Shown: piece by piece, positions 7,404-62,728 of the stretch
Numbering within the stretch: the first letter of the stretch is position 1
Layout: every line of letters begins with the position of its first letter
DNA from: a virus
Taxonomy: Duplodnaviria; Caudoviricetes
Virus record (IMG/VR): IMGVR_UViG_3300032321_000388
Span: 32,001-96,000 of that record
Strand: one strand, 5' to 3'
DNA length: 64,000 nucleotides
Program-made: the position numbers and the translations under genes
The notes under the pieces: model-generated
Told to the model about the DNA's origin: nothing
Database searches by the model: none
Seen by the model: the letters and a program-made list of their open reading frames with translations, nothing else

Positions 7404-7404
7404 A

Positions 7405-7725
7405 ATGAAAACTATATTATTTTTGTTAGTTATAGTAATTAGTTTTTTAGCAGTATCAAAAGAAGTTAAAAAGTTACATTATAATTATAATGATAAAGTT
7501 ACAATTTGGATAAGCAACGAAGAGTGTCCATTACCGCAATTTATTAAACAATTTCCATGGAAAGTAGAAGCAATTCGTTCTGATGGAGATATCATGATAG
7601 GTTGTTTTAATGGAGAAAATAATACAGTAACTATTCAATGGAATGGCGGAGATAAAAGCATGTTTCCAGCAGATTATTTTTTATATAATACATCCAGTGA
7701 AGCACTTCCTAAAAATAATCTATAA
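7405..7725 (+). CDS. Small secreted hypothetical protein
   Basis: Signal peptide/anchor; two Cys; lies inside the curli cluster. Confidence 0.55.
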   Translation: MKTILFLLVIVISFLAVSKEVKKLHYNYNDKVTIWISNEECPLPQFIKQFPWKVEAIRSDGDIMIGCFNGENNTVTIQWNGGDKSMFPADYFLYNTSSEALPKNNL

Positions 7726-40564: not shown

Positions 40565-41620
40565 ATGGCTTTACCTTCTAGCGGAAGAATTAAACTAAGT
40601 GATGTTAATACCGAATTAGGATTATCATCTACTACACGCGTATCTTTAGGTCAAGCTACTGTTCGAACTTTAACTGGTGTTGTATCTGGTAAAATTGCTT
40701 TAGCTGCAAATGGATATGGCAAGGCAAATAGAGTATCATTAAGCAGTACATTTTCTAGTAATACAGCTAATGCTACAGTATCTGTTTCTACATTAATTGG
40801 CTATATAGCTGGAAAAACTGATTTAACAATTACAGTTAATAGTGGAGTATATGTTTATTCTACAGATACAACAGCTCCTGGATTAATTATATCTAATGCT
40901 GCAGCAGGCGATACTGTAACATTAGTTAATAATGGCTATATCATGGGTAAAGGCGGTAATGGAGCAGGCGTAGGTGGTCAAGCTTATGGTACAACTGGTG
41001 AAGTTGGAAAACCTGGTGGTTCTGCTATATACTTGGGATGCAATATTTCTCTTACTAATAATAGTTATATTGGTGGTGGTGGCGGTGGAGGAGCATCAGT
41101 TGGTAGATCACGCAGCGGTGGAGCTGGAGGAGCGGGTGGAGGAGATGCCGGTGATGCTAGCTTATCATATCCTACTTACTTAGGTGGTCGTGGCGGGGCT
41201 CCTGGTGCCGCTGGAACAAATGGTTCTAATACCGGTGTACCTACCCATGGAGGCGGTGGAAGAATAATGCCAGGTGTCGGTGGTGGACAAAATTCTAGTG
41301 GTGGTCTTGGAGGCGGAGCAGGAGGTGGGGCTGGACCAAGAGCATATAATACTTCAGCATCACCTTCTTTACAATTTGCTGGATACTCTTCAGGAGGAAG
41401 TGGCGGTGATGCTGCAGGATTAGCATACCTTATAAATTATGAACATTCTTGCGGTGGTGGAGGAGGTTGGGGAGCAAAAGGTGGAGACGCCCAATCTGGA
41501 GGAACAGGATCATATCGAAACTTACTAATGTCAGGCGGAGCTGGCGGTAAAGGCATAGAGCTTAATGGTTATTCAGTCACATATGTAACAACAGGTACAA
41601 TTTATGGAGCGGTTAGTTAG
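40565..41620 (+). CDS. Glycine-rich fibre-tip adhesin (gp38-like)
   Basis: MALPSSGRIKLSDVNTELG N-terminus; LVNNGYIMGKGGNG, GGGGGGG, GGGGGWG, GTIYGAVS. Confidence 0.8.
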   Translation: MALPSSGRIKLSDVNTELGLSSTTRVSLGQATVRTLTGVVSGKIALAANGYGKANRVSLSSTFSSNTANATVSVSTLIGYIAGKTDLTITVNSGVYVYSTDTTAPGLIISNAAAGDTVTLVNNGYIMGKGGNGAGVGGQAYGTTGEVGKPGGSAIYLGCNISLTNNSYIGGGGGGGASVGRSRSGGAGGAGGGDAGDASLSYPTYLGGRGGAPGAAGTNGSNTGVPTHGGGGRIMPGVGGGQNSSGGLGGGAGGGAGPRAYNTSASPSLQFAGYSSGGSGGDAAGLAYLINYEHSCGGGGGWGAKGGDAQSGGTGSYRNLLMSGGAGGKGIELNGYSVTYVTTGTIYGAVS

Positions 41621-47173: not shown

Positions 47174-49942
47174 ATGCCATCATCATATTCAATGTTTAAA
47201 CAGAAGTTCAAAAAGACCATCGCGGATGCGGTGTATCAGGAAGTAACTTCTAAGACAGCTCGATACTATCATTGGTTTGGTAAAGAAAATACATGGCAAG
47301 ATTTCTTAAGTCCATTTATTCCATCTGGCACTACTGATACTCCTGGAGCTCCTTCAGAAAATTTCCGTTATGAACTTCATGTTCGTCGAGACATTCTTAC
47401 TGCCAAATTAATTAAACCTTCTGATGTATCATACGTTACTAGAAGAGTTGATTGGACTAATGGAACTGTTTTTGACATATATGATGATGCTTATGAAGCT
47501 ACAAATGGATATGGCTATGGTCCAGCCTATTCTGGAGCAATTCGTTTAGAAGATGCAAACTTCTATGTACTTACAAATGAATATAATGTTTATAAATGTA
47601 TAGATAATAATGATAATTCTCCATCTACGTATCAACCTACTGGTACTACACCTGATGTATTTGAAACAACCGATGGTTATAAATGGAAATTTATGTATGG
47701 TATTCCTGTTTCATTAAGAAATAGATTCTTATCATCAACATATATGCCAGTTTCAACATCTTTAAAAGCACAGTTCTATTCTTCAGGTTCTATTAATAAT
47801 ATTGCTATTGAGAATGGTGGAGGAGGATATAATCCAGGAACTACCATAGCAGTTATTAGTGGTGATGGTTATAAAGAATTTAATCCATATTTAATTAGTT
47901 CTATCACAACTACAAATGGTGGTCAAGGATTTACTACAATTCCAGCAATTACAATTGAACCTCCTTTTTCAAGTGCGATTGCATGGTCATCTGCAGCAAA
48001 TGTTCCTCTTGGAAGTTATGTTAGCTATTTAAATCCAGCCACATTAAAAACAAATTTCTATTACGTTTTATCTGGTACTAAATTAGGTACTTCAGGTCCT
48101 ATTCATACAACTGGAACTATTACAAATGGTGGCACTCAATTAAGATATTCTGGAACTACAGCAACAGCAGAATGTGTATTATCAAGCGGTGCAGTTGGTA
48201 CTGTATCTTTAATTGACGGCGGTTATGGTTATCAAGATGCACCAACTGTTACAGCAGATTATCCTATTACAAAAGATGCTGATTGGGTTACATTAACAAC
48301 AGCAGTATTAGGTGATATTCTTAAATATGATGGAAGATATTACGAAGTTACTTTAGCTGGAACTACAGGAGCTTCTGGTCCAACTCATACAACAGGCGAA
48401 GTTTTAAATGGTTCATCAAAATTAACATACTTAGGTAAAGATGCAGTATTAACTCCAGTTATTGTAAAAACTGAAGCAGAAATATCATTAGTTATTTCTC
48501 CTGGAATTGATAGCTTATATTCAGTATCTATAGGTTTGACCGGTTCTAAATACGTAGAAATTCCAACGGTAACAATTGATGCTCCAGGTTCTGGAATACA
48601 AGCTGAAGCAGAAGCTTCTATAGCGGGTGGTAAAGTAACTCTTATTAGTGTTATTAATCCTGGAAATGGTTATATATCTGTCCCGTTAATAACAATAACA
48701 AATCCTAAAATTACTTTTAATGCTGCCACAGGTCTTAACGATGTAACAGAAGTTATTAGTTATACTGGGCATAGACTAGTTACCGGCGATGCCGTTGTAT
48801 ATAACAATGGAGGTGGAACATCTATTGGTGGTTTAACATCAACAAATACTTATTATGTTATTAAAGTAAATGATGATTCATTTAGACTTGCCACATCAGC
48901 AATAAATGCAACAAATGGAACATATATTAATCTAACAGATGGCATTGGTTCAGCCCATACTTTAACACTTACATCTGGAAATGCTACTGCAACAGCAATT
49001 CTTGGTACTGGTGGTGAAATTGTAGGATATAGCATTGATGATGCTGGTATTGGATATACTAATGCAAATATTGAGATTGTTGATTCATCTGGATCTGGTT
49101 CAGGAGCAGTTTTAGTTCCTGACTTCTCAGTTGGTAATGTTGATACATTACAGGCAAACGTTGAGCTGCTTGCAGTTCCAGGTTCTATTGAACTTATTAA
49201 AGTAGTAGACGGTGGTACTGGATACGGAGGAGCAACTGCTACTATTTTAGGAGATGGCATTGGAGCTACCGCTGATATTATTTGTTCGGGTGGTAAGGTA
49301 ACTAAAGTAGTCATAACAAATCCAGGTTCTGGTTACACATGGACAGATGTTCAGATTACAGGTAATACAGGTTCATCTGGAGCAGTTGTAAGAGCTATTA
49401 TGTCTCCATTAGGAGGTCATGGTTCAAATGCTATTGATGAGCTAAATGCCAATTCAATTGTATTCTATACATCTATATCACGAGATAAGAATCAAGGCAT
49501 TGAAATTAACAATGACTATCGTAAGGTAGGTCTTGTTCGTAACTTTAAACAGTTTGGTTCTAATAGAAGATTTACAGATGACATTGGATCTGGTTGTGTA
49601 CTTATTACTGGTACTTTTGATCCAACAAAAATTCAATATGATATGTTATTATTAAAAGATGGATATAAGAAGTATCGTGTTGTTGACTTTACAGATACTC
49701 AGATCTTATTATCAGTATTCAATAACTTTTCTGTTTCTATTGGTGATACATTAGTTACAGATCCTACAGATGCTGGATTAATTACAGCCCCATCCGTAAT
49801 TGCACAGAATATTATTGTAACAAGTGTATCAGAACGAACTATCGATCAATTCTCAGGCGACTTCTTGTTCTTCTCAGTAAGAGAACCATATTCTCCTACA
49901 GCAGAGCAAATTATTACCGTAAGAACTGTCCTAACAATATAA
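47174..49942 (+). CDS. 8: Baseplate wedge gp8-like, extended
   Basis: RRVDWTNG..YDD, FYVLTNEYNVYKCIDN, DGYKWKFMY, SPLGGHGSNAIDEL, NDYRKVGL. Confidence 0.82.
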   Translation: MPSSYSMFKQKFKKTIADAVYQEVTSKTARYYHWFGKENTWQDFLSPFIPSGTTDTPGAPSENFRYELHVRRDILTAKLIKPSDVSYVTRRVDWTNGTVFDIYDDAYEATNGYGYGPAYSGAIRLEDANFYVLTNEYNVYKCIDNNDNSPSTYQPTGTTPDVFETTDGYKWKFMYGIPVSLRNRFLSSTYMPVSTSLKAQFYSSGSINNIAIENGGGGYNPGTTIAVISGDGYKEFNPYLISSITTTNGGQGFTTIPAITIEPPFSSAIAWSSAANVPLGSYVSYLNPATLKTNFYYVLSGTKLGTSGPIHTTGTITNGGTQLRYSGTTATAECVLSSGAVGTVSLIDGGYGYQDAPTVTADYPITKDADWVTLTTAVLGDILKYDGRYYEVTLAGTTGASGPTHTTGEVLNGSSKLTYLGKDAVLTPVIVKTEAEISLVISPGIDSLYSVSIGLTGSKYVEIPTVTIDAPGSGIQAEAEASIAGGKVTLISVINPGNGYISVPLITITNPKITFNAATGLNDVTEVISYTGHRLVTGDAVVYNNGGGTSIGGLTSTNTYYVIKVNDDSFRLATSAINATNGTYINLTDGIGSAHTLTLTSGNATATAILGTGGEIVGYSIDDAGIGYTNANIEIVDSSGSGSGAVLVPDFSVGNVDTLQANVELLAVPGSIELIKVVDGGTGYGGATATILGDGIGATADIICSGGKVTKVVITNPGSGYTWTDVQITGNTGSSGAVVRAIMSPLGGHGSNAIDELNANSIVFYTSISRDKNQGIEINNDYRKVGLVRNFKQFGSNRRFTDDIGSGCVLITGTFDPTKIQYDMLLLKDGYKKYRVVDFTDTQILLSVFNNFSVSIGDTLVTDPTDAGLITAPSVIAQNIIVTSVSERTIDQFSGDFLFFSVREPYSPTAEQIITVRTVLTI

Positions 49943-49945
49943 ATA
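49938..49945 (+). promoter_or_regulatory. Late promoter
   Basis: TATAAATA. Confidence 0.6.
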
Positions 49946-49971: not shown

Positions 49972-52900
49972 ATGGCACTTAATTTTAATACCAATCCCTA
50001 CTATGACGACTTTGACGATACCAAGAATTATCATCGAATTCTATTCCGTCCCGGTTTTGCTGTTCAAGCAAGGGAGTTAACTCAACTTCAAACACAAATC
50101 CAAGATCAGATTAATAGATTTGGCAGACATATATTTACTAGCGGATCTATTGTTACCGGTGGAGCAAGATTATTTGATAATAATCTTCTTTCAATTAAGT
50201 TAGCTTCTACTTATTCTGGTACTACAGTTAATCTTCAAAACTTTGTTGGTAAAACTATTACTGGTGCATCATCAGGTACTATAGCTGTAGTTAAATCTAT
50301 TGCAGATATTACTTCAACTGATCCTAAAACTCTTTTAGTTAAGATTACTTCTGGTACTGCATTTACTGCTGGTGAGAATATTACAACATCACCTGGAACA
50401 GTCTATAATGCAACAATTCAGAATACATTACCGTTTAATAGTGCAATGGTATTCTCAATTGATTCTGGTATCTTCTTTGTTGATGGTAAGTTTATCTATT
50501 TAGAAGCTCAGACAATCAATGTTGACAAGTATACAAATACATCATCAAAGAATATTGGTTTAGTTTTAAATGAATCAATTATTACTTCAGATAACGATTT
50601 ATCTATTTTAGATCGGGCACAAGGTTCTCCAAACTATGCAGCTCCTGGCGCAGATCGTTATGCTGCAACATTAACACTAACTGTTAAAGCTTTAGCTGAT
50701 GATGTTGAAAACTTTATTGAGATTGCCCGTGTAGTTGATGGAGCTCTTGTTGTTAATCAAGACAAGACAGTTTATTCAGAGATTGGTAAAGAACTTGCTC
50801 GTAGAACATATGATGAGTCAGGTGACTACACAGTTAAGAAATGGCCTATTCAAATATCAGATGATGTTACAGATCCTTCTGATCCAACTAAATTTACAGT
50901 AGCTCTTGATCCAGGTAAAGCATACGTTAAAGGATATGAATTTGGTACTATCAATCAAACATTCCTTACGTTAGATCGTGCAAGAGATACTGAACAAGCA
51001 GATAACATTGATGTTTCTACTACTTATGGTAACTATGTTTATGTGACAAGTATGTTTGGAGCATTCTCAACTAATGCTACTTCATCAGCATATTCATCAG
51101 TGGAAATTCATAACGTAGCAAGAGCTTCAGTATCAAGTTCATCAACTAAACTTGGTACTGCAAAAGTTAGATTTGTAAATTGGGTATCAGGTACTCCAGG
51201 TACTGCAGCGATCTATAAGATGTACCTATTTGATATTGTAATGGATTCAGGTAAATTCTTTAAAGATGCTGAATCTATTATCATCAACTCAGCTTCACCC
51301 ACATCTGGCGCTAATGTTGATGTATTATCAAAGGTTGGTGGTTCAGCTGGAGGAGATGCGTTCCTTTCAGGTGCTGATAGTCCAGGTTTAGTATTCCAAG
51401 TACCCAATGACTATATCAAAACAATTAGAGATAGTTTAAATGCTACTCAGTCTGATTATGCAATACAAAGAACATTTACTTCAGTATCATTTACATCTGG
51501 TACTGCTTCTATCTCAACAGCAAATGGATTAGAAAGATTTATTGGTGGATCTGGAGCTTTATCTGATACACAAAAAGATATGTATTATCATGCAGTAATT
51601 ACTGCTGTTACAAATGCTGGTTCAACTGGTTTATCTATTGGTTCAGTTATTCCATTCCGTTCAGCATCAACTAGATCTATCACACTCGCAACTCCAGTTT
51701 CAGGAGCAGCGCATCAAGCAACATTTAATATTAATGATGCATCATTTGCTGCAACAGTAACTATCATTGCTGGTATTAATGCAAATACACAAACAGAAAA
51801 GACTAAGACATTATCTGGATACTCAATCAAGATTTTAGGTACAGGTTCTGCTGGTGGTTTAAATACAACAATTGGCGGTAAAGATACATTAGCATTATCA
51901 GACATATATGATATTGCTGGTATCTATAATACCAGTACAACTAATCCAACTGCAGTAACTATTAATAGTACTACTGGTGCTCTTACATGGGGTGCAGTAT
52001 CTCATACTGACGTAACTGCAAATTATATAATTGATAATGGACAACGTGCTGAATACTATAATCATGGTAGCTTAATTCTTAACGGAACAGCTCCTACAGC
52101 ATCACATTATCTATTAGTAGTATATAGAAACTTTGCTCATTCAGGTAATGGTTTCTTATCAGTCAATTCATATGGTATTGACTATGCAGATATTCCGCAA
52201 TTTACAGATCCTGCATCTGGTCAAATATATGAATTAAGAGATTGTATTGACTTTAGACCAAGACGCGCAGATGGCTCAACAGCTCTTAACAATGGTCAAG
52301 TACCTTCACCAGATGGAACATTTAACGCAGATTATCAATACTATTTAGGTCGTATTGATAAGATTATTGCAACTTCTGATCAACAATTCATGGTTAAGAA
52401 GGGTATTGCAGCAATTTATCCAACTATTCCAACTGATGAATCAAATGGCATGGCAATCTATAATGTTGTTATTCCTCCATATACAGCTGATGTTAAAGAT
52501 ATTCAAATTAAATATATTGAAAACAAACGATATACTATGCGTGATATTGGACGTTTAGAAAAACGCATTGGTAATCTTGAATATTATACACAATTATCTC
52601 TATTAGAGAAACAAGCTAAAGATACATCAATTCCGGATGCATCTAATTTTGAAAAATTTAAAAATGGTTTTGTTGTTGATACATTTACTTCAGCTGACAT
52701 CTTTGCTACTTCAGCAGTGACATGGTCACAAAGACGATGGGGTTGGTGGTCAGCATGGTTTAATGGTTCAAATACTTGGGGTGGAACTGCAACAAACTAC
52801 AATGAGAATTCAATAGCTCAGGCTGCAGATCCTGATTTCTTAGCAGCAATTGATCCTATTAATCAAGAATTGCGTGCTCCATTTACAGTTGAATTTAGTC

Positions 52901-55170
52901 AATTTGATACATCAACATTAACAGATACTGCAAAGACTGGTGATCTAGTAACTCTTGATTATACTGAAGTTACGGCCATAGATCAACCATTATCAACCAC
53001 ATACGCTAATATTAATCCATTCAATGTGCTTCGTTTTGTTGGTTCTATTGTACTTGAACCATCATTTGACCAATGGGTTGATACAGCTTACCTACCTGCA
53101 GTTAATAAAGTAGTTGATATACAATTACAAGATGCTGAAGATAAGTACGAAACAAGATCTACTGGAGGTGGCGGAAGAATATTTGCTGTTACTGGTTCAA
53201 CTACCACAACAGTTACAAACGTTGTTGGTTCTGCAACTTCTACATTAGGAACAAACGTAGTTGATATCCAATACGTTCCATTCATCAGAGCAAATACAGT
53301 TTTAGGTGTATCAAGATTATTTAAACCTAAAGCTAGACTATATCCATTTATTGAAAATACAAGTATTACTCCGTATGTTAAACCATTAACATTGATTGAA
53401 GTGCAAAATCATACTGGCACTTTATTTGATGACAAACAAGGTGTTCATGAATCATTATCATTCAGAACTGGTTCAGCATCAGGAGCAGAGGCTGGTACCG
53501 CAAGAGCGGCTTTATATTCCCAACCATTAACAACAGATTCTACCAAACGATTATTATCTGTTTATAATGATGCTGGTACTATCACAGTTGGTAAATATGT
53601 TGTTGGTTTAACTGGTGGAGGTTCTGGAGTAGTTACTGCAGTTACAACATACACATTAGATAATCCTTTAGTTCCTGATGAATACGGTAATATTGCTTTT
53701 GAGTTCCAGATCCCAGCTAATACATTTAAAACTGGTGAAAGAACTATTCGATTAATTGATAATACAACTAATGATACTGAAGCTCAAGAATCTATCGGTG
53801 AAACCAAGTATACCGCTATTGGTACATTACAAACTAAACAAGAAACTATTCTCACTACACGATCATTACAAAATCAAAAGACAGTAACACAAATTGGTTA
53901 TTGGTATGATCCACTAGGTCAAACATTCTTAGTTGATGCTAGAGCAAATCCACAAGGATTCCATCTATCATCAGTTGATGTTTACTTTAAATCTAAATCT
54001 GCCACGGTTCCTGTTACTATGGAAATTCGTAGAACAGTTAATGGTTATCCAGAATCTGTTAGAACTATTCCGTTCTCTGAATCTATCCTTAATCCAGAAC
54101 AAGTAAATATTCAAGGTGGTGGTACAAGTTCTACAAATGACGCTGTTCAACCAGCAACAACATTTAACTTTGCAAACCCAATTCACTTGACTCCAGGTGA
54201 GTATGCAATTGTACTTGTTTCACAATCAAATGATTACCAAGTATACATATCACAAATGGGTGGTACAATTTTAGGTGGTACTACTAAAGTTGATAAACAA
54301 CCGTACATTGGATCTCTATTCTTCTCTCAAAATGCTTCTACATGGGAACCAGATCAGAATAAGGATCTTAAGTTCAAGATCAAGCGGGCAGACTTTACTA
54401 CTTCAGGTACAGCAGAATTTACTATTCAGGATCCTGCCACTATATATGATTATCACACGTTATTTACAAATGTGTCGACAGTATTACCTACAGGCACAAA
54501 TGTAGTTTGGTCAGCAAAAGCATACAATACTGATACAACATTTGATACTGATTGGACTCCATTTAATGTAATGCAAGATATTAATTACTCATACCTCAAG
54601 CGTCTAGCGGCTGCTTCAGGTATTGGTGGTACACCATCATTGAGATTACGCGCGTCATTAACAACTGAAAGTTCATTTGTATCTCCAGTTATTGATGCAG
54701 CAAGTCTATCAGTAGTTACTGCTCTTAATAGTATCAATAACGATGCATCAGGAGAAGCTTCAGTTAAAGCCGGTGGTACAGCTCTTGCTAGATATATTAC
54801 TAAACCAATTAATCTTGCTTCTGGTTTTGAAGCATCTAACTTGGCCGTAACTATTGATATCAATAAACCAGCTGGTACAGACGTCAAAGTTTATTACAAG
54901 ACACTACCAACTGAAAAGACAACTCCAATCTCTGACGAAAATTGGGTACTAATGACTCTTGAATCTACTGTTCCTTCATCATTATCCAACTATGACTTTA
55001 GAGAACATAGATACTTCCCAAGCGGAGCATTTAATTCTTATGGAGTTCCACAAGATAATCCTATTAGTCCAAGATTCAATACATTCCAAGTTAAGATTGT
55101 AATGTTATCTTCAAATCAATCTAATAGTCCAAGATTAAGAGATCTAAGAATTATTGCATTGGATAGTTAA
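49972..55170 (+). CDS. Large virion structural protein (DUF4815/VrlC-like)
   Basis: NPYYDDFD..KNYHRILFRPG.AVQARELTQLQ, APGADR, LARRTYDESGDY, YTMRDIG, DPLGQTF, DLRIIAL. Confidence 0.85.
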   Translation: MALNFNTNPYYDDFDDTKNYHRILFRPGFAVQARELTQLQTQIQDQINRFGRHIFTSGSIVTGGARLFDNNLLSIKLASTYSGTTVNLQNFVGKTITGASSGTIAVVKSIADITSTDPKTLLVKITSGTAFTAGENITTSPGTVYNATIQNTLPFNSAMVFSIDSGIFFVDGKFIYLEAQTINVDKYTNTSSKNIGLVLNESIITSDNDLSILDRAQGSPNYAAPGADRYAATLTLTVKALADDVENFIEIARVVDGALVVNQDKTVYSEIGKELARRTYDESGDYTVKKWPIQISDDVTDPSDPTKFTVALDPGKAYVKGYEFGTINQTFLTLDRARDTEQADNIDVSTTYGNYVYVTSMFGAFSTNATSSAYSSVEIHNVARASVSSSSTKLGTAKVRFVNWVSGTPGTAAIYKMYLFDIVMDSGKFFKDAESIIINSASPTSGANVDVLSKVGGSAGGDAFLSGADSPGLVFQVPNDYIKTIRDSLNATQSDYAIQRTFTSVSFTSGTASISTANGLERFIGGSGALSDTQKDMYYHAVITAVTNAGSTGLSIGSVIPFRSASTRSITLATPVSGAAHQATFNINDASFAATVTIIAGINANTQTEKTKTLSGYSIKILGTGSAGGLNTTIGGKDTLALSDIYDIAGIYNTSTTNPTAVTINSTTGALTWGAVSHTDVTANYIIDNGQRAEYYNHGSLILNGTAPTASHYLLVVYRNFAHSGNGFLSVNSYGIDYADIPQFTDPASGQIYELRDCIDFRPRRADGSTALNNGQVPSPDGTFNADYQYYLGRIDKIIATSDQQFMVKKGIAAIYPTIPTDESNGMAIYNVVIPPYTADVKDIQIKYIENKRYTMRDIGRLEKRIGNLEYYTQLSLLEKQAKDTSIPDASNFEKFKNGFVVDTFTSADIFATSAVTWSQRRWGWWSAWFNGSNTWGGTATNYNENSIAQAADPDFLAAIDPINQELRAPFTVEFSQFDTSTLTDTAKTGDLVTLDYTEVTAIDQPLSTTYANINPFNVLRFVGSIVLEPSFDQWVDTAYLPAVNKVVDIQLQDAEDKYETRSTGGGGRIFAVTGSTTTTVTNVVGSATSTLGTNVVDIQYVPFIRANTVLGVSRLFKPKARLYPFIENTSITPYVKPLTLIEVQNHTGTLFDDKQGVHESLSFRTGSASGAEAGTARAALYSQPLTTDSTKRLLSVYNDAGTITVGKYVVGLTGGGSGVVTAVTTYTLDNPLVPDEYGNIAFEFQIPANTFKTGERTIRLIDNTTNDTEAQESIGETKYTAIGTLQTKQETILTTRSLQNQKTVTQIGYWYDPLGQTFLVDARANPQGFHLSSVDVYFKSKSATVPVTMEIRRTVNGYPESVRTIPFSESILNPEQVNIQGGGTSSTNDAVQPATTFNFANPIHLTPGEYAIVLVSQSNDYQVYISQMGGTILGGTTKVDKQPYIGSLFFSQNASTWEPDQNKDLKFKIKRADFTTSGTAEFTIQDPATIYDYHTLFTNVSTVLPTGTNVVWSAKAYNTDTTFDTDWTPFNVMQDINYSYLKRLAAASGIGGTPSLRLRASLTTESSFVSPVIDAASLSVVTALNSINNDASGEASVKAGGTALARYITKPINLASGFEASNLAVTIDINKPAGTDVKVYYKTLPTEKTTPISDENWVLMTLESTVPSSLSNYDFREHRYFPSGAFNSYGVPQDNPISPRFNTFQVKIVMLSSNQSNSPRLRDLRIIALDS

Positions 55171-55171
55171 T

Positions 55172-55378
55172 ATGAAGATTAAAGTAGAAAATGAATCATT
55201 GGTAAGAGATACAGGAACTAATGCTATCTTAGAGACTGATGTAAATAAATTGCAGAAATCTAGAGCTATTAGACAAGCATTAAAAGAAAAAGAAAACAAA
55301 TTAGATTATTTGATTGATAAAATAAATAAACTAGAAACAATTATCGACGGGATGACAAATGGCAAGCTTAACACTTAG
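55172..55378 (+). CDS. Small conserved coiled-coil protein
   Basis: KVENESLVRDTGTNAIL; typical neighbour of the DUF4815-like gene. Confidence 0.65.
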   Translation: MKIKVENESLVRDTGTNAILETDVNKLQKSRAIRQALKEKENKLDYLIDKINKLETIIDGMTNGKLNT

Positions 55379-56552
55379 ACTAGGCGCAACAGGTGCAACA
55401 GGAGTTAAAAACGCTCCACTCACTAATGCTGAGATTGATACTAACTTTAGTAATCTTAATACTGAAGTTGGAACTAAATTAGCTTCAGCATCTTATACAG
55501 CTGCTGATGTTTTAACAAAGATTAAAACTGTTGATGGTACTGGTTCTGGTCTAGATGCAGATCTTTTAGATGGTCTTAATGCAGTTTCAGGTGCTACTGG
55601 AGCAAGTATTGTATCACGTGATTCCTCAGGTAATTTTGCTTCAAATCAAATTACAGCTGCACAATTTATTGGTCCATTATATTTAGGTACGGCTGATACG
55701 ATTGTATTTGAAGGTTCAACTGCTGATGCTTATGAGACATCATTAACTGTAACAGATCCAACTGCTGATAGAACAATTACATTTCCAGATTTAACAGGAA
55801 CAGTTGTTGTTTCTGGCGCTGGTGGAGCTATTACAAATGATATGCTTGCTGGTTCTATAGCAAATTCTAAATTAGTTAATAGTTCTATTACTCTTGATGG
55901 TAACACTGTTGCATTGGGTGGATCATTAACTATTGGAGCAGGATTAAAGAGCGCAGATAACGTATGGACAGGCACACAAACATTTAGAGATAATAAGTTT
56001 ACTATCACAGATGATGTTGATAATACAAAGGTATTAGCTTTACAACTATCAAACATTACTACTGGTACAACAAGAACACTTACTATTCCAGATGCAACTG
56101 GAACTATTGCAATTGGCCAACAAGTACTTACTAGCTCAAATGTGCAATTTGCTAATACACAACTCAGTTCATTAGGAGTTGGAACTGCTTCATCAGGTAA
56201 TGCCGGTGAGATTCGTGCAACCGGTAATATATTTGCATTCTATACGTCAGATAAAAATTTAAAAGAAAATATTGTTGCTATACCAAATGCTTTACAAAAA
56301 GTAGATCAAATTAGAGGTGTAACATTTGATTGGACAGATGCTGAGATTACTAAACGCGGTGGAGAAGATGGCTATTTTATCCGTAAAAATGATGTCGGTG
56401 TTATTGCTCAAGAAGTTGAAGCAGTATTACCAGAAGTAGTTGGCACAAATGGTGATGGATATAAAGCTGTCAAATATGAATTAATTATTCCACTACTCAT
56501 AGAAGCAATTAAGGAATTAAAAGCTGAAGTTGAAACATTGAAATCTAAATAA
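55359..56552 (+). CDS. Tail fibre with C-terminal S74 chaperone domain
   Basis: APLTNAEIDTNF anchor; GSGLDADLLDG; YTSDKNLKENI...GVIAQEVE. Confidence 0.85.
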   Translation: MASLTLRLGATGATGVKNAPLTNAEIDTNFSNLNTEVGTKLASASYTAADVLTKIKTVDGTGSGLDADLLDGLNAVSGATGASIVSRDSSGNFASNQITAAQFIGPLYLGTADTIVFEGSTADAYETSLTVTDPTADRTITFPDLTGTVVVSGAGGAITNDMLAGSIANSKLVNSSITLDGNTVALGGSLTIGAGLKSADNVWTGTQTFRDNKFTITDDVDNTKVLALQLSNITTGTTRTLTIPDATGTIAIGQQVLTSSNVQFANTQLSSLGVGTASSGNAGEIRATGNIFAFYTSDKNLKENIVAIPNALQKVDQIRGVTFDWTDAEITKRGGEDGYFIRKNDVGVIAQEVEAVLPEVVGTNGDGYKAVKYELIIPLLIEAIKELKAEVETLKSK

Positions 56553-56567
56553 TTAAAGGGTTATATA

Positions 56568-58022
56568 ATGATATTTGAAATACTCGGTGAGCGTAGTGCT
56601 GGAGATACTAAAGTTTTCTATTATGATAATATGGAAAACATACTAAAAGATGCTGATGGAAATGTGTTTGAATTTTCTGAAAAGCCTACAATACCAGATC
56701 AGTATTTAAAAGAATATAAATCTTTTGATAAAGATCACCCATTAAAGAAGTCTAATAAGATACAATTATTAAAGATTCAAATGGGTTTAAGTTGCAATTA
56801 TTCATGTGACTATTGTTCGCAAAAGTTTGTAGAGCGCGCACCAGAAACTAATAAAGATGATATTAGTGAGTTCATGCAAAAACTAGAAGTACTAGAATTT
56901 GATGAAAAGAACGGATTAAAGATTGAATTTTGGGGTGGTGAACCATTAGTTTATTGGAAAACATTAAAACCACTTGCAGAAGCATTATACGAAAAATTTG
57001 CATCATGGGAAAGAAAACCCCAGTTTAGTATTATTACTAATGGATCTATCTTAAGCGATGAGATCATTGATTGGTTAATGAAGATGGAATTTTCTGTTGC
57101 TATATCACATGATGGTCCTGGTCAAAGTGTTAGAGGTCCAGATCCATTTGATGATCCAAAACAGAAAGAAACTATTCTCGGATTCTATAGAATGATGACA
57201 AGATTAGGTAAAGGATTTAGCTTTAATGCTATGCTAAATTCTAAGAATAAGAGTCGCAAAGCAATATATGACTGGTTTGTAAAATTAACTGGTGATGAGA
57301 ATATTAAACTTGGAGAAGGTTCTATAGTTGATGCTTATGATGAAGATGGCATAACTAATTCATTACAATCTCTTCAAGAACATTTTGAATTTAGACGTAC
57401 TGCAGTATCTGATATACTACAGACAGAAGGTAAAATTGGATTCTTTGGTCAATTACAAAAGATTGACAATTTTACTAGCGGTGTACTAGCTCATAGAAAT
57501 GCTAAATATGTCGGTCAAAAATGCGGCATGGATGACGAACATACTATTGCTGTAGATTTACGAGGTAATGTATTAACATGTCAAAATGTTAGTGCATTGG
57601 AAACATCTAAAAATGATGAATCACATCTTGGTGGCAATTTAGACGATTATGATAATGTTGAACTTAAATCAGTTACTCATTGGAGTAACCGTAAAGAATG
57701 TTCAAGTTGTCCTGTATTACATATTTGTCAAGGAGCTTGTATGTTCCTTGATAAGAAGTTTTGGGATATATCGTGTGCTAATGCTTATTCAGATAACGTG
57801 GCATTATTTGCTTTGGCTATCCATAAAATGACTGGGTACATTCCAAAGCTAATTAAGAATGATACATTACCATTAGAAAGACAAGATATATTTGGTACAA
57901 TGTATAAGCATGAAGAAAAAGAAACTAAAAAGATTATACCTATAAAAGTATTCAACGAGAAAATAATGAAAATTGATGATATTGAAGTTTATGGTAAATC
58001 TGTTATTAAAGAAATTAATTAA
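56568..58022 (+). CDS. Radical SAM enzyme with SPASM domain (peptide/protein maturase type)
   Basis: CNYSCDYC, FWGGEPL, ITNGS, ISHDG; SPASM Cys set KCG...LTC...CSSC-x5-C-x3-C...SC. Confidence 0.93.
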   Translation: MIFEILGERSAGDTKVFYYDNMENILKDADGNVFEFSEKPTIPDQYLKEYKSFDKDHPLKKSNKIQLLKIQMGLSCNYSCDYCSQKFVERAPETNKDDISEFMQKLEVLEFDEKNGLKIEFWGGEPLVYWKTLKPLAEALYEKFASWERKPQFSIITNGSILSDEIIDWLMKMEFSVAISHDGPGQSVRGPDPFDDPKQKETILGFYRMMTRLGKGFSFNAMLNSKNKSRKAIYDWFVKLTGDENIKLGEGSIVDAYDEDGITNSLQSLQEHFEFRRTAVSDILQTEGKIGFFGQLQKIDNFTSGVLAHRNAKYVGQKCGMDDEHTIAVDLRGNVLTCQNVSALETSKNDESHLGGNLDDYDNVELKSVTHWSNRKECSSCPVLHICQGACMFLDKKFWDISCANAYSDNVALFALAIHKMTGYIPKLIKNDTLPLERQDIFGTMYKHEEKETKKIIPIKVFNEKIMKIDDIEVYGKSVIKEIN

Positions 58023-58032
58023 GTAGGGAATT

Positions 58033-58917
58033 ATGACATTACAAACAACTGGAACACTAGCAGTATCTGATATTAATACCGAAATAGGTCTTAGTTCTAC
58101 ATACTCTGACGATCTAGCATTTTTAAATAATAAAATTGTGGCTGCTCAAAGACCAACTACTCCTAATTTTGGTGCATTTTACGGATTAACTCATTTTCAA
58201 AATAGCACACAAGGTAATTGTGATAATGCAAATGCTGCTGGTGTAAATTGTAATTGTGGAAATGTTAATTGTTCTGCCACAGCTAACTGCGCAGGTATTA
58301 ACTGTACTAACTGTGATACTCAACCCTGGTTACAAACTAATTGTAACTGTGCTTGTACTTATAACTGCACCAATAATCAAAATTGCTTCTCATATAACTG
58401 CAATTGCAGTAAGATTATCTGTACAAAACTATATGAGATTGGAATGTTGCCTAAAGATGTGTTTGAAGCAGATCAAGCATTTGGCGATCTATTAAAAGTA
58501 AAACATCCAGACGTTTATAATGGTTATATTGCATGGGCTCAAATTGTTGTAGATTGGATGAGTGGCAAGGGTCCTAAGATGATGCCTTGGATGTCTGATG
58601 AAGAGTTTAGTAAAGCTGCACAAAATTGGTCTACTTCATGGGCAGAAACTATTGCTACTCCATGGGCTGATTATATGGCATATAAGATGGGTCTAAAAGA
58701 AACTATCAATAAGACTGGATTTGTATTAATGATGGTTGGTATACCAATTAGTAAAGTTGTTGGTGTATGGCAACGGATATTTGGTAAGAGTACTAAACCT
58801 ACAGGATTTGGTAAAGGCTTAATGCTTATTGGTATATTTGTCTTACTAAAAGCAATAGTTGAAATTGGTAAATTATTTGGTCAAAGGACTGAATCATTAG
58901 CTGGGAGAAATGCATAA
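58033..58917 (+). CDS. Asn-Cys repeat protein with fibre-tip N-terminus; putative maturase substrate
   Basis: N-terminus SDINTEIGLSST resembles the adhesin at 40565; 14 Cys in residues 62-125; KIIC-initiated helical domain; hydrophobic C-terminus. Confidence 0.8.
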   Translation: MTLQTTGTLAVSDINTEIGLSSTYSDDLAFLNNKIVAAQRPTTPNFGAFYGLTHFQNSTQGNCDNANAAGVNCNCGNVNCSATANCAGINCTNCDTQPWLQTNCNCACTYNCTNNQNCFSYNCNCSKIICTKLYEIGMLPKDVFEADQAFGDLLKVKHPDVYNGYIAWAQIVVDWMSGKGPKMMPWMSDEEFSKAAQNWSTSWAETIATPWADYMAYKMGLKETINKTGFVLMMVGIPISKVVGVWQRIFGKSTKPTGFGKGLMLIGIFVLLKAIVEIGKLFGQRTESLAGRNA

Positions 58918-59267
58918 TGGCTGAAGAATTAGAAAACGTAGCAGTAAAAACAATAACTGCAAAATGTGGGCATGATGTTATATATAGACATGACCATATC
59001 ATGGAATATTGGAATGAGCAAGTATATGCTCGAACATTAGCTCTATCTCCAGAGGAAAAAGATAGATACTTCCAAATGGTAACAGACTATGGTGATATTA
59101 TCAAGAAACTATTAGATGATGATAATCATGTTATCTATGATCATGTGGCTGGTAATCCATGGGTAAATTTAGAGTCTGCCGCAGAAGAGGGTGTTATTGT
59201 AGATCGAGATAAACCAAAACAGTTGTTAGATGAATATGATGCATGGAAGGCTCGACAACCTCAATAA
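58917..59267 (+). CDS. Hypothetical protein in the rSAM cassette
   Basis: Translationally coupled (TAATG) to the Cys-rich gene. Confidence 0.6.
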   Translation: MAEELENVAVKTITAKCGHDVIYRHDHIMEYWNEQVYARTLALSPEEKDRYFQMVTDYGDIIKKLLDDDNHVIYDHVAGNPWVNLESAAEEGVIVDRDKPKQLLDEYDAWKARQPQ

Positions 59268-59978
59268 TTGAAAGACTATATTATGAATGACATGACAGAT
59301 AAAGAACGTTATCATTGGTATCAAAATGCGCAAAACTTATTTTGGAAAAGCCCAATATGGGAAATACAGACAAAATTTGATGAAGCATTTAATGAACAGT
59401 TGCTTGAAGAGATATATGATATAGGTAAAAATATAACTTTAGGTATAGATAAAGATCCACATAATAGTATATGGGATTATAGTAGACCTAACTTAGATAT
59501 CTTAAAGCAAGAGATTATTGATATAGTTGAGACAACCATTATTAAGAACATACCTGAAGTCAGGATGTTAAATTTAAAAGGTTGTGAACATTTCATGGGT
59601 TGGATTAATGTTAGAGAACCTGGTGAAAGATTAGAAATACACGGACATACAGAATCAGCCATAGCAGCAACATATTATATCAAAGCAAAAGAAGGATGTG
59701 GAGATTTAGTAGCATATGATACTGCTGGAGCTATTGATTGGGATAATAATACCTTAAGTGGTAGTCCTTATGTAAGAGCAAGAAGATTTAAACCTGTAGA
59801 GGGTAGATTGATATTCTTTCCATCATATGTATTACATGGAGTAGATGATAATAAATCAGATGACTTACGAATATCATTAAGTACGGATTTACGTAAAGTA
59901 GTTGATAAGAATTCTTCAAATACTGTTATATTAAAATCTTGGGCTGGTAGAATGGCTAAGATTAAAGAGTGGAAATAA
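59268..59978 (+). CDS. 2OG-Fe(II) oxygenase (TIGR02466-like)
   Basis: WINV, IHGH, ATYYI, GRLIFFPSYVLHGV, RISLS. Confidence 0.85.
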   Translation: MKDYIMNDMTDKERYHWYQNAQNLFWKSPIWEIQTKFDEAFNEQLLEEIYDIGKNITLGIDKDPHNSIWDYSRPNLDILKQEIIDIVETTIIKNIPEVRMLNLKGCEHFMGWINVREPGERLEIHGHTESAIAATYYIKAKEGCGDLVAYDTAGAIDWDNNTLSGSPYVRARRFKPVEGRLIFFPSYVLHGVDDNKSDDLRISLSTDLRKVVDKNSSNTVILKSWAGRMAKIKEWK

Positions 59979-60505
59979 TGTTTTGTAAATTAAACAATTC
60001 ATTTGAGAAACCTCTCTATATAGTAACAGAAGGATTAAAGACATTTACTGGTGTAGATGATAAAGGCATAGACTACAAAAAGATCTGGAGTCCAGATGCT
60101 GAAAAATTATTATCAGTATTACCAAAGAGATATTGGGATGACTTTCATTTGACAGTCATGACTATTAATAGACCAATACCTCCTCATACTGATACTGAGA
60201 TCATCACTACTATTAATTTTTATATTGAGACTGGTGGAGCAAGAACTGTATTTTATGAACCTATAGTTGATGAACCACGCACGTTTCAAATAGAGAATCA
60301 AACTGATGGTTACATATATTATCTAGAAGATTTAAAAGAAGTTGGCAGTTTTGTAGCAAAAGATTTTGAAATCTGGTGTTTAGATGTTAAAAAGATACAT
60401 GCTGTTGAAGGTAATGTATCCATAAGAAAAGCTGTAACATTAGGCACATTCAAACACAAGTATGAAGATGTTGTAGAGATGTTTAAGGAAACTGGATGTT
60501 TGTAA
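59978..60505 (+). CDS. 2OG-Fe(II) oxygenase-like protein (HxD...H)
   Basis: PPHTD, TINFYI, LDVKKIHAV, RKAVTL. Confidence 0.75.
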   Translation: MFCKLNNSFEKPLYIVTEGLKTFTGVDDKGIDYKKIWSPDAEKLLSVLPKRYWDDFHLTVMTINRPIPPHTDTEIITTINFYIETGGARTVFYEPIVDEPRTFQIENQTDGYIYYLEDLKEVGSFVAKDFEIWCLDVKKIHAVEGNVSIRKAVTLGTFKHKYEDVVEMFKETGCL

Positions 60506-61065
60506 AACTAAAGAATAGTTTTAAAACTCCGTTATTCATAGCAATAAATGAATTAGAATCTTGGGCAGGTATAGACGGTAAAGGAGTTCATCATAAAAAG
60601 ATATGGAGTCCTGACCATGAACAGTTATATAGTGTATTGCCTAAAAGGTATTGGGATGATTTTGAATTAACAGTAATGACTATTAATTCTATTTTATTAC
60701 CGCATCAAGATAATGATTTAATAACTACTATTAATTTTTATATAGATCCTGGTAATTATAGAACAGTATTCTATGAATCAAAAGATGGTGTAAAGATTTC
60801 AAGACCTGAGATGCAAGTAACTGGAACTAATGTTCCATTAGAACAGCAAATAGGTTATGTTAAAGCTGTATATCAGCTTGAAGATGTTAAAGAATTAGAT
60901 AGTTTCATTGCTAGACCTAATGAAGCATACTTATTAGATGTTACAAAGATTCATAATGTTGAACCAATTGGCGAAACAACTGTAAGAAAAGCTATAGCTT
61001 TAAGAACTAAAAAGTACACATATAATGAAGTATATCATATGTTAAATGAAACTGGAAACCTATAA
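60496..61065 (+). CDS. 2OG-Fe(II) oxygenase-like protein, tandem paralog
   Basis: LPHQD, TINFYI, LDVTKIHNV, RKAIAL; shares KKIWSPD and VLPKRYWDDF with the upstream gene. Confidence 0.75.
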   Translation: MFVKLKNSFKTPLFIAINELESWAGIDGKGVHHKKIWSPDHEQLYSVLPKRYWDDFELTVMTINSILLPHQDNDLITTINFYIDPGNYRTVFYESKDGVKISRPEMQVTGTNVPLEQQIGYVKAVYQLEDVKELDSFIARPNEAYLLDVTKIHNVEPIGETTVRKAIALRTKKYTYNEVYHMLNETGNL

Positions 61066-61074
61066 GGATTAATT

Positions 61075-61863
61075 ATGTTTTATGAAAAACTAAATTTAAA
61101 CATTGATATTGAAAAGCTTAGAAAAGAAGTAGTTGACAATGTATTTCCACTAGGAGATCAAGTCATTCAAGGTGAAGAGTATGAAACTCCTCAGTATCAT
61201 GGTTTTGGTGGATGGAGTATTACTACTCGTACAGGCGATTGGAAAGATGGATGGGAAACTTTTCAAACAGAACAAGGTGAAGTGTTAGAAAAGTTCTTGC
61301 CTACTCCTGAATTAGTCACTAAGTCTCTTAAGTACTTTAATATGGCACATAGCTTAGAGCATGATAAACCAACTCAAGCTTATGTTGGAGAGATTCGTAA
61401 GGTAGTAGAACAAATAACAGAATTAGGTTTGACTCCACGAAGAGTAAGAGTTGCATGTCTTAAAGCTGGTTGTAAAAGTTTAGTACATAAAGATGCAGAC
61501 ACATCTGAGTATATGGCTAGATTGCATATACCATTATGGACAGATCCAAAAGCAGTGTTTATTGCAGAAAATAAACATCTACATATGGAAACTGGTTCTG
61601 CTTACATGGTTTGGGTAAATATTTGGCATCAAATTAGAAATGATTCTGACACAGACAGATATCATCTAATAATGGATGTATATGATACTAAACATATTAC
61701 TGAGCACTTTAAATATATGGGCGATTTTGCTCAATTAGAAAACTTTACTCGTGGTTATAGAGAGCAAATAGAAGCAGCAGAATTAACAGAAGATGATAAA
61801 GAATTTTTTAAAGCTATAAAAGCTAGGTATACTACAAAGAGTACAATAGAACACGCACTATAA
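61075..61863 (+). CDS. Aspartyl/asparaginyl beta-hydroxylase-family oxygenase
   Basis: RVRVACL, LVHKD, RLHIPL.T, WHQIRN, DRYHLIMD. Confidence 0.82.
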   Translation: MFYEKLNLNIDIEKLRKEVVDNVFPLGDQVIQGEEYETPQYHGFGGWSITTRTGDWKDGWETFQTEQGEVLEKFLPTPELVTKSLKYFNMAHSLEHDKPTQAYVGEIRKVVEQITELGLTPRRVRVACLKAGCKSLVHKDADTSEYMARLHIPLWTDPKAVFIAENKHLHMETGSAYMVWVNIWHQIRNDSDTDRYHLIMDVYDTKHITEHFKYMGDFAQLENFTRGYREQIEAAELTEDDKEFFKAIKARYTTKSTIEHAL

Positions 61864-61894: not shown

Positions 61895-62728
61895 ATGGCA
61901 ACGATAACACTAAGAAGTATTAAAGGATCACCTCTAACTATTACAGAGATGGACGATAATTTCAGTAATCTTAATACTGATGTAGGTAATAAAGTATCAA
62001 CTTCAACCTATACTGGTTCGGATATACTAACAAAATTACTTACAGTTGATGGATCTGGTTCTGGATTAGATGCTGACTTATTAGATGGAAAAAATACAGC
62101 TTCAACAGATACTATTAATACTATAGTTGCTAGAGATGGTTCTGGTAATTTTGCTGCCAATCAAATTACAGCAACTACTTTTACTGGATCATTAGTAGTT
62201 CCTACAACTGGTTCTGTTTCTTTATCTGGATCAAGTTCAGGTTCTATTACTCTTGCTGTTCCTTCTTCTGCTGGAACAAACACAATTACATTCCCAGCTA
62301 CTACAGGTAATGTGGTAACTACAGGAGATTCTGGTACAGTTACAAACACAATGCTTGCTGGTTCAATAGCAAACTCTAAACTTGCTAATAGTACAATTAC
62401 TATTGATGGTAATGCAGTATCTCTTGGTGGATCTGTAAGTATTTCATCAGGTAATATTACTTGGACTGGTGCTCAAGTATTTAGAGATAATAAATGGACA
62501 ATGACTGATAATACAGATACTACTAAAGCATTTGTATTTGAAGCATCAGGTATTGGAGCTAATACAACAAGAACTCTAACAGTTCCTAATTCAGATGGAA
62601 CTATTGCTACACAAACATATGTTCAAAATTATATTCAAACTGCAGGTTTTAATTCACAGGGAACAAAAACAATTTCTTCTAGTACTCCATCAGGCGGTGT
62701 TGATGGCGACATTTGGTATCAGGTATAA
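61895..62728 (+). CDS. Tail fibre protein, paralog of 55359..56552
   Basis: GSPLTITEMDDNF, DGSGSGLDADLLDG, MLAGSIANSKL, FRDNK, TTRTLT; ends GVDGDIWYQV. Confidence 0.8.
   Translation: MATITLRSIKGSPLTITEMDDNFSNLNTDVGNKVSTSTYTGSDILTKLLTVDGSGSGLDADLLDGKNTASTDTINTIVARDGSGNFAANQITATTFTGSLVVPTTGSVSLSGSSSGSITLAVPSSAGTNTITFPATTGNVVTTGDSGTVTNTMLAGSIANSKLANSTITIDGNAVSLGGSVSISSGNITWTGAQVFRDNKWTMTDNTDTTKAFVFEASGIGANTTRTLTVPNSDGTIATQTYVQNYIQTAGFNSQGTKTISSSTPSGGVDGDIWYQV

Follow-up and report, generated by a model that had tools for sequence, protein, structure and literature searches.

Which protein does a radical S-adenosylmethionine (rSAM) enzyme act on when a tailed phage encodes it among its structural genes? 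This question is raised by a stretch of 64,000 nucleotides (positions 32,001 to 96,000 of IMG/VR record IMGVR_UViG_3300032321_000388; hereafter the window) from an uncultured T4-like myovirus, whose source contig has 118.6 kb and 35.8% GC and whose baseplate wedge protein finds its closest relative in Pelagibacter phage HTVC008M (42% identity). Directly downstream of the rSAM gene lies the open reading frame (ORF) of a protein which we call NC294 and in which three modules are observed: an N-terminal domain common to gp38-like adhesins, a core dominated by Asn-Cys pairs and a C-terminal helical module beginning with KIICT (Table 1). We regard it as well supported, and very probable from the comparisons of sequences given below, that the Asn-Cys core is the substrate of the neighbouring rSAM enzyme. 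The finding would be one of maturation in the manner of peptides which the ribosome makes and which are modified after translation (RiPPs), by an rSAM enzyme, applied to a viral protein of structural type.

The Asn-Cys core and its pairing with an rSAM enzyme

An earlier note on this DNA had ended the feature at 58407. The ORF runs on to 58917, and more than half of the protein, including the conserved C-terminal module, had been left out. The counts given there for residues 62-125 agree with the translation: this tract has 14 Cys, 13 of which directly follow an Asn. It also has 18 Asn, and 13 NC dipeptides were reached in none of 100,000 shuffles of it. The several overlapping NxxC motifs which had been noticed are six in number and are accompanied by six Cx3[D/E/N] motifs. 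More than 582 metagenomic proteins of about 300 residues belong to the same family and none of them is named. In alignments of 30 and 105 members, a nearly fixed framework appears, consisting in its first part of G61-N62-C63, N72-C73, C80, N85-C86, N90-C91 and N93-C94-D95, and in its second part of Q101, N103-C104, Y110-N111-C112, N117-C118 and N122-C123-N124-C125-S126; the Cys and Asn columns are invariant or at least 90% conserved, with a hotspot of insertions and deletions after residues 75-77. The mean column entropy is 1.16 in the core and 1.15 in the C-terminal region, while it reaches 1.69 in the moderately variable N-terminal ~59 residues. The comparison of tract variability across relatives which had been proposed therefore describes a core no less conserved than the other parts of the protein. 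It is a conserved domain, and neither a tract of low complexity nor a region of hypervariable loops.

Neither NC294 as a whole nor its N- and C-terminal parts belong to a family of Pfam, PHROGs or NCBIfam. In an AlphaFold2 model built with 105 sequences, residues 1-59 have a predicted local distance difference test (pLDDT) score of 75-83 and the C-terminal helices one of about 80, while the core stays below 50; a core left unmodelled in this way would fit a fold which depends on modification, on metal or on partners. Foldseek gave zero matches against the PDB at E <= 0.001, the wide fold search VIA gave a best Z of 6.3 to helical bundles, within noise, and the matches from the ESM Atlas were all to viral clusters without a name, with scores below 0.9. 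A profile match in the PDB to a "covalently connected cytochrome c555 trimer" was rejected, as three identical repeats inflate the E-value (any one stretch has an i-E of 9.3).

We then consider the neighbours of the core in related IMG/VR loci, the counts of the genes downstream of the core gene being taken over 80 loci and the counts of upstream fibres over 47. An rSAM gene is observed upstream in all 68 loci which have an Asn-Cys core and have retained upstream DNA. It is directly adjacent to the core gene in nearly all of them and is 65-89% identical, more conserved than its candidate substrate, and most of these loci also have oxygenase genes downstream. About ten loci match the C-terminal module and have a Gly-rich or other core, and three of these match the N-terminus too: the proteins of L071, L074 and L077 carry the N-terminal motif of NC294 and the C-terminal module around a Gly-rich core. 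Neither rSAM nor oxygenases were found within 8 kb of these three or of the loci which share only the module. As the rSAM gene is present with Asn-Cys cores and absent with Gly-rich ones, the enzyme tracks the Asn-Cys core and not the scaffold. The idea that a Cys core takes the place of a Gly-rich one is borne out by these sister proteins, which share both end modules and carry the Gly-rich core at that place; judging from such alignments, Gly-rich and Asn-Cys cores interchange on one scaffold. A divergent homologue of NC294, P0342, is also encoded directly after an rSAM gene (486 amino acids).

The 68 T4-like loci share a common descent and amount to few independent events. Because of this kinship independent cases were sought, and independent support comes from three classes, represented by prophages and by the phages JWF and RSP15. 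A homologue of the rSAM enzyme (45-48% identity) is encoded by Achromobacter phage JWF and another by Ralstonia phage RSP15, in both within tail-fibre modules: the fibre JWF gp028 carries NCNCDCNCNCSC, after which comes a Hint domain, and RSP15 ORF048 ends in ...NTNCQCGN. Further homologues (33-73% identity) define 80 loci in bacterial genomes, mostly of Burkholderiales and Alphaproteobacteria, which are probably prophages. A strict scan found in 56 of these 80 an ORF on the same strand, at most ~4 kb upstream, which contains four or more [N/D]C pairs, in most cases at its very C-terminal end, and by this criterion no such tract was found anywhere else in the six frames of the 80 loci. With a relaxed scan, an upstream ORF on the same strand and ending in (N/D-C)n was found in 63 of the 67 loci having at least 3 kb of upstream sequence.

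The reverse test started from the tails. IMG/VR was scanned for DNA encoding NCNCNCNC, and an occurrence was counted if the tract fell within the final 30 residues of an ORF with 90 or more amino acids. An rSAM gene was found in 52 loci, always on the same strand and at a median distance of 1.27 kb downstream of the NCNCNCNC tail; one locus had none despite 5 kb of flank, and 12 were truncated. When NCNCNCNC tracts lay in short ORFs, an rSAM gene was found in only 2 of 41. The pairing is thus nearly obligate whichever partner one starts from, in lineages of phages which are not related to one another, and the proposal that NC294 is a candidate rSAM substrate gains accordingly. The tails of JWF gp028 and RSP15 ORF048 resemble NC294 in their NC repeats, including the motif NCNCG-x-x-x-C, and in the family of the enzyme. 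They and the prophage tracts differ from it in being short low-complexity tails which end a long fibre or precede a Hint domain, whereas in NC294 a conserved framework of 65 residues is enclosed in a small protein of its own, with the KIICT module after it. In Limnohabitans, a distant locus has the order of an NC-tail protein, another ORF, three 2-oxoglutarate (2OG) oxygenases and the rSAM gene, so that oxygenases recur with the pair of enzyme and core. RSP15 ORF046 has no significant similarity to the Asp/Asn hydroxylase.

Two further observations concern these independent loci. In the alphaproteobacterial prophage-like locus L149, a second rSAM gene (6830-7852, 340 amino acids, PF04055) stands immediately upstream of the main one (7791-9227) and after the NC-tailed fibre. 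A protein of 271-294 amino acids is encoded directly after the NC-tailed fibre gene in four unrelated prophage or phage loci (L096:6483-7340, L104:5128-5955, L149:5942-6826 and L001:3314-4129, the last being RSP15 ORF047); these proteins match no family and have a similar C-terminal motif, ...GFK[YWF]FS...V.V. They may represent another conserved partner of the system.

The enzyme and its probable reaction

The enzyme has the features of an rSAM/SPASM protein. The cluster motif CxxxCxxC is found as CNYSCDYC at residues 76-83 and does not vary among 10 homologues, whose identity goes down to 45%, and PF04055 is matched with 37.3 bits (cut-off 29.5). A set of seven SPASM cysteines (C319, C338, C378, C381, C387, C391 and C403) is entirely invariant, G333-x4-C338 is present, and the SPASM domain TIGR04085 scores 34.2 bits (cut-off 27). 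The best matches in NCBIfam are PapB, the geopeptide maturase, QhpD, CcpM, the Nif11 maturase, HxsB, the SCIFF maturase and CefB. All these named maturases are matched far below their cut-offs, and the best model, PapB (NF047865), gives 83.4 bits against a cut-off of 340, which places the enzyme outside that family. Judged by sequence, the nearest enzymes of solved structure are TvgB (8VPO), which is a cyclopropylglycine synthase and forms C-C bonds (PMC10878394), then CteB (thioether) and anSME (formylglycine). Hence, homology cannot fix the reaction.

We nevertheless lean slightly towards thioethers linking Cys sulfur to Asn or Asp side chains, by analogy with known systems, for three reasons. 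Each Cys is paired with an Asn (or Asp); such motifs are used by enzymes of the PapB and NxxcB types (PMC9413430); and CrpC with CrpA, for which ranthionine cross-links made by a SPASM enzyme were recently shown, gives a precedent at the scale of a protein (PMC13692751). The Asp/Asn beta-hydroxylase (PF05118) of the cassette also seems to point at Asn and Asp residues. Like NC294 and its enzyme, PapB/PapA (freyrasin) and NxxcB/NxxcA, the latter likened by description, associate an rSAM/SPASM enzyme with a Cys-rich substrate having repeated Cx3[D/N] and NxxC motifs. Among the features of a substrate of the ranthipeptide or NxxC type, the Cx3[D/E] or NxxC core motifs are found in NC294, while a short leader-core precursor is not: unlike PapA and NxxcA, the putative substrate is a phage protein of 294 residues and three domains on an adhesin scaffold. 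The system also differs from those of PapB and NxxcB in being encoded by a phage, within a late structural gene run and with four oxygenases. Cys thioethers are made in whole proteins by the SPASM rSAM enzymes CrpC (on CrpA of Methanococcus voltae) and QhpD (on QhpC of quinohaemoprotein amine dehydrogenase) (PMC13692751). QhpD is among the best NCBIfam matches, yet our enzyme scores far below the cut-offs of families of the CrpC/QhpD type; CrpA and QhpC are moreover cellular (an archaeal Cys-rich protein and an enzyme subunit) and not viral fibres, and they have neither an Asn-Cys dipeptide framework nor a battery of oxygenases.

It is unlikely, though the best placed of the alternatives, that the core is an rSAM substrate for some other chemistry: formylglycine in the manner of anSME, C-C cross-links, epimerisation or a modification of Asn, the leftover Cys possibly binding metal along the axis of an oligomer. 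The needle of T4 gp37 binds iron by HxH motifs. The presence of TvgB and anSME beside CteB among the closest solved enzymes agrees with such chemistries, with the N-C-N-C alternation every Cys would point to the same side of a strand, and the core unfolded in the AlphaFold2 monomer fits a dependence on metal or oligomers as well as on modification. However, most of the best-scoring NCBIfam models describe enzymes which make thioethers in Cys-rich peptides (PapB, QhpD, CcpM, SCIFF, CefB), and the nearly invariant pairing of Asn or Asp with Cys is the pattern used by NxxC and Cx3D thioether systems.

The end modules and the possible place of NC294 on a fibre

The N-terminus of NC294 had been said to resemble that of the Gly-rich adhesin of ORF 40565. 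By BLASTP its first 23 residues have 13 identities with this adhesin (pairwise E 2e-5), and hhalign aligns the two families over columns 1-55 (51 columns) with a probability of 96.1% and E 2.9e-9. As the profile alignment is significant, the similarity is real. It is visible also in the DNA, with 18 matches out of 20 between 40601-40620 and 58069-58088 where 0.01 would be expected by chance. ORF 40565 belongs to the large gp38 adhesin family PF05268, its own scan being only just above the cut-off (25.7 against 25 bits), and the stretch common to both proteins lies upstream of the region matched by Pfam (residues 77-192). NC294 itself matches no Pfam family even at E <= 1 and shows neither PF05268 nor the Gly-rich sandwich. 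It thus resembles the T-even gp38 adhesins in ~55 N-terminal residues homologous to the window's gp38-like family and in its position after a fibre gene, which is the same in this window and in L087 and L088, and differs from them in lacking that match and that sandwich. By this homology, the N-terminal domain probably attaches NC294 to the distal end of a tail fibre. Another paralogue of ORF 40565 lies at contig positions 111138-111533, ~15 kb past the end of the window (37% identity over residues 1-127).

The choice of the fibre is less clear. Both genes had been described as lying downstream of a fibre gene, and NC294 as docking on fibre 55359. The first statement holds in this window (39363 followed by 40565; 55359 followed by the rSAM gene and 58033) and fails for most of the Asn-Cys relatives. 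A DUF4815-type gene is upstream of the cassette in 2 of 47 loci although it would be expected there, as would the S74 fibre, and in L015 the cassette stands beside PhoH-like and other non-structural genes. Closer arrangements exist: an S74 fibre directly precedes a short NC protein in the distant loci L087 and L088, and in L077 a fibre-repeat protein is encoded immediately before the sister adhesin with the Gly-rich core. As to docking, a related tip motif, G-x-[IFM]-x-x-[TVS]-G-[ND]-[IV]-x-[AG]-[FY], ends all five fibres found just upstream of such N-termini, 55359 included (with the rSAM gene in between), when the ends are read after S74 cleavage where S74 is present. These ends are GEIRATGNIFAFYT (55359, residues 283-296), GNFTTTGNVTGFGT (L077), ...MTATGNITAYYS (L087) and ...MVASGNVSAYS (L088), that of 39363 being similar. 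ORF 39363 (39363-40562) has no S74 domain and ends in the motif which S74 fibres would expose, G-x-[IF]-x-x-[TV]-G-[ND]-[IV]-x-A-[FY]-x-T. The motif is possibly a common docking platform for adhesins sharing this N-terminus, and the agreement among five sequences is suggestive for docking. On the other side, the S74 domain ends just before the rSAM gene in only 3 of 47 related contigs. We therefore hold docking on fibre 55359 in particular to be possible and somewhat doubtful, and an association of NC294 with fibre tips in general to be a little more probable than its contrary.

The C-terminal module was followed by a search with residues 125-294 among 1.84 billion representatives, which gave 570 clusters (representatives clustered at 50% identity) at E <= 0.001. 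Among the listed proteins of full length, which range from about 150 to 1859 amino acids, fragments being set aside, the module always forms the extreme C-terminus. The 112 sequences which keep KIIC have polyGly before the module in 69 cases and an NC core in 10. In IMG/VR loci the module ends giant proteins of the DUF4815 type, fibre-repeat proteins and gp38-like Gly-rich adhesins. It has no match in Pfam, PHROGs or the sequences of the PDB and no convincing fold match; the S74 chaperone domain (PF13884) was found neither in residues 125-294 nor in the whole of NC294, which gave no Pfam hit. Loci in genomes of Polynucleobacter and Paraburkholderia, presumably prophages, encode short proteins like NC294 which stop right after the NC core, so that the module is dispensable for whatever the core does. 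We infer that the module is an appendage for assembly or anchoring, and it may be removed from the protein.

Several other occurrences of the module were recorded, in loci L065 and L070-L081 and in proteins P0247-P0396. In P0271, P0311, P0315, P0322 and P0350 a Hint or intein-like junction directly precedes it (...IVEGFIVHNK/KIICT, ...FIVHNCGGGG/SIICT), which suggests that in those proteins it can be cut off autocatalytically. In gene 028 of Synechococcus phage SynMITS9220M01 (L003:4669-6519), adhesin-like and Gly-rich, a run of ~33 Pro followed by 8 Arg links the Gly-rich domain to a KIICT-type module. P0290 is a minimal protein made of (NC)4 and KIICT, on a contig too short to show any rSAM neighbour.

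Taken as a whole, the explanation which we consider the best, and which seems to us fairly probable, is the following. NC294 would be an accessory protein which is made late, is associated with fibres and has a modular adhesin scaffold as its basis. Its N-terminal ~55 residues, as in the gp38-like adhesins of the phage, would probably fix it to the distal end of a fibre. Its middle framework of 65 residues would be the dedicated substrate of the rSAM/SPASM enzyme encoded 10 nt upstream, which most likely links Cys sulfur to a side-chain carbon of a nearby Asn or Asp (a ranthionine-type linkage; compare PapB, NxxcB, QhpD and CrpC), and the core would in this way become a compact knob held by covalent staples. 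The four Fe(II)/2OG oxygenases encoded downstream, one of them of the Asp/Asn beta-hydroxylase family, would probably hydroxylate the same core. The KIICT module with its membrane-like helix would be a generic C-terminal appendage of fibres and adhesins, probably with a role in assembly and perhaps removed afterwards. Of all this, the sequences show the architecture, the homologies and the joint occurrence of enzyme and candidate substrate; the kind of reaction, the location in the particle, the partner fibre and what becomes of the C-terminal module are proposals.

Several points weigh against this explanation. The kinship of the T4-like loci, the rarity of an S74 fibre before the rSAM gene and the low scores of the enzyme in every named maturase family have been given above, and with TvgB as the closest solved enzyme the chemistry is unreadable from sequence. 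In addition, the core is not hypervariable, unlike typical variable receptor-binding loops or domains; a C-terminal membrane-like helix is unexpected in a protein of the virion tip; and an NC-core protein was found in no cultured phage of the phage collection.

Some of these points would suit a protein outside the virion, either anchored in the host membrane (for superinfection exclusion or the timing of lysis) or serving as the precursor of a RiPP-like product which is released: the membrane-like helix lies at residues 258-283 (Kyte-Doolittle 2.09 over 19 amino acids), the cassette is away from fibre genes in most relatives, for example in L015, and the core is conserved and not diversifying. 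Against this stand the presence of the same C-terminal module at the end of DUF4815-type structural proteins, gp38-like Gly-rich proteins and fibre-repeat proteins, an N-terminus common to adhesins encoded directly after fibre genes, the NC tails of other lineages, which sit on bona fide fibre proteins, and the place of NC294 in a tight run with structural genes between two late-promoter-like motifs. We consider a role outside the virion improbable. That the Cys tract forms disulfides or Zn sites unaided, as Cys-rich domains often do (nothing here speaks for it directly), while the rSAM enzyme acts on something else, is very improbable, given a linkage nearly obligate both ways in unrelated phage groups, the loss of the rSAM gene exactly where a Gly-rich core replaces the Asn-Cys core, and a contig of 118.6 kb in which NC294 is the sole NC-repeat ORF and its neighbour the sole rSAM.

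If we return to the fibre-associated, rSAM-modified protein, a wider proposal can be made, to which we give about equal weight for and against: phages would run a RiPP-style pathway of their own on virion proteins, in which rSAM/SPASM enzymes and oxygenases of the Asp/Asn hydroxylase type staple Asn-Cys segments at the fibre ends that contact the host. NC294 would be the plug-in version, with an N-terminal fibre anchor, an exchangeable core for which Gly-rich and Cys cores are interchangeable, and KIICT as a C-terminal pro-domain. A full-text search of the literature found no description of rSAM modification of phage fibre or adhesin proteins, and neither NC-tail fibres nor a core of the NC294 type were described in the literature searched; the sole phage match was a cyanophage rSAM gene labelled "antibiotic synthesis gene", without evidence. 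Three things are contributed by this case: the significant N-terminal homology with gp38-like adhesins, the exchange between Gly-rich and Asn-Cys cores on one scaffold, and the KIICT module, which is widespread and has no annotation. The thioether chemistry of rSAM enzymes is known for antimicrobial peptides of small size and, since very recently, for a handful of proteins of cells. Should phages apply it to their host-binding parts, it would be a new class of post-translational modification of virions, with a bearing on the stability and specificity of fibre tips in aquatic phages, including relatives of the abundant pelagimyophages. As the protein is small and the gene of the enzyme adjoins its own, the question is directly testable, and the modular scaffold with the KIICT module is useful for annotating the receptor-binding proteins of phages.

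The gene run around NC294

The coordinates of the features are collected in Table 1.

Table 1. Features of NC294 and of its surroundings (window coordinates)
Feature	Coordinates	Strand	Description and basis
NC294, whole ORF	58033..58917	+	294 aa, three-module Asn-Cys protein; ORF list, alignments, >582 homologues of ~300 aa
N-terminal domain, residues 1-55	58033..58197	+	common to gp38-like Gly-rich adhesins; BLASTP, hhalign
Asn-Cys core, residues 61-126	58213..58410	+	G61-N62-C63 ... N122-C123-N124-C125-S126; putative target of the rSAM enzyme (and of oxygenases)
C-terminal helical module	58411..58917	+	168 residues, invariant start K127-I-I-C130-T-K-L; membrane-like helix 258-283
gp38-like adhesin	40565..41620	+	Gly-rich paralogue with the common N-terminal domain; PF05268, 25.7 bits (cut-off 25), residues 77-192
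Tail fibre	55359..56552	+	C-terminal S74 intramolecular chaperone; PF13884, tail-fibre PHROGs; predicted mature tip ...GEIRATGNIFAFYT before SDKNLKENI
Radical SAM/SPASM enzyme	56568..58022	+	484 aa, 10 nt upstream of NC294; PF04055, phrog_1802
116-aa protein	58917..59267	+	start overlaps the NC294 stop; weakly conserved cassette member, same position in 51/80 related loci
2OG-Fe(II) oxygenase	59268..59978	+	PF13759; kept in the cassette in 62/80 loci
Two cupin/oxygenase-like ORFs	59969..61065	+	paralogous, 178 and 189 aa, 51% identical; 64/80 loci; no Pfam hit
Asp/Asn beta-hydroxylase family oxygenase	61075..61863	+	PF05118, 40.6 bits (cut-off 22.6); 65/80 loci
TATAAATA, T4 late-promoter-like	49938..49945	+	next copy downstream at 61859

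On one strand, the run comprises in order a DUF4815-like giant protein, an ORF of 74 amino acids, the S74 fibre, the rSAM enzyme, NC294, the ORF of 116 amino acids and the four oxygenases, and all junctions throughout the run are overlapping or at most 15 nt long. The two TATAAATA motifs at 49938 and 61859 have no copy between them. Positions 49972-61863 may therefore be one late transcription unit, and the arrangement suggests that NC294 is expressed late together with its neighbours of the run. Since the motif is not enriched window-wide (11 copies were found where 12.8 are expected by chance), this late co-expression is put forward as an inference. The ORF of 116 amino acids matches no family in Pfam, PHROGs or NCBIfam, and no similarity was found between it and the small ORF which follows the module protein of SynMITS9220M01.

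Finally, we must note that the first ~250 residues of the S74 fibre 55359 (55359-56111) are 53% identical to those of a fibre-like ORF of 277 amino acids, 61895 (61895-62608). Two paralogous fibre starts hence flank the cassette of rSAM and oxygenases, which looks as if it had been inserted at a fibre duplication.

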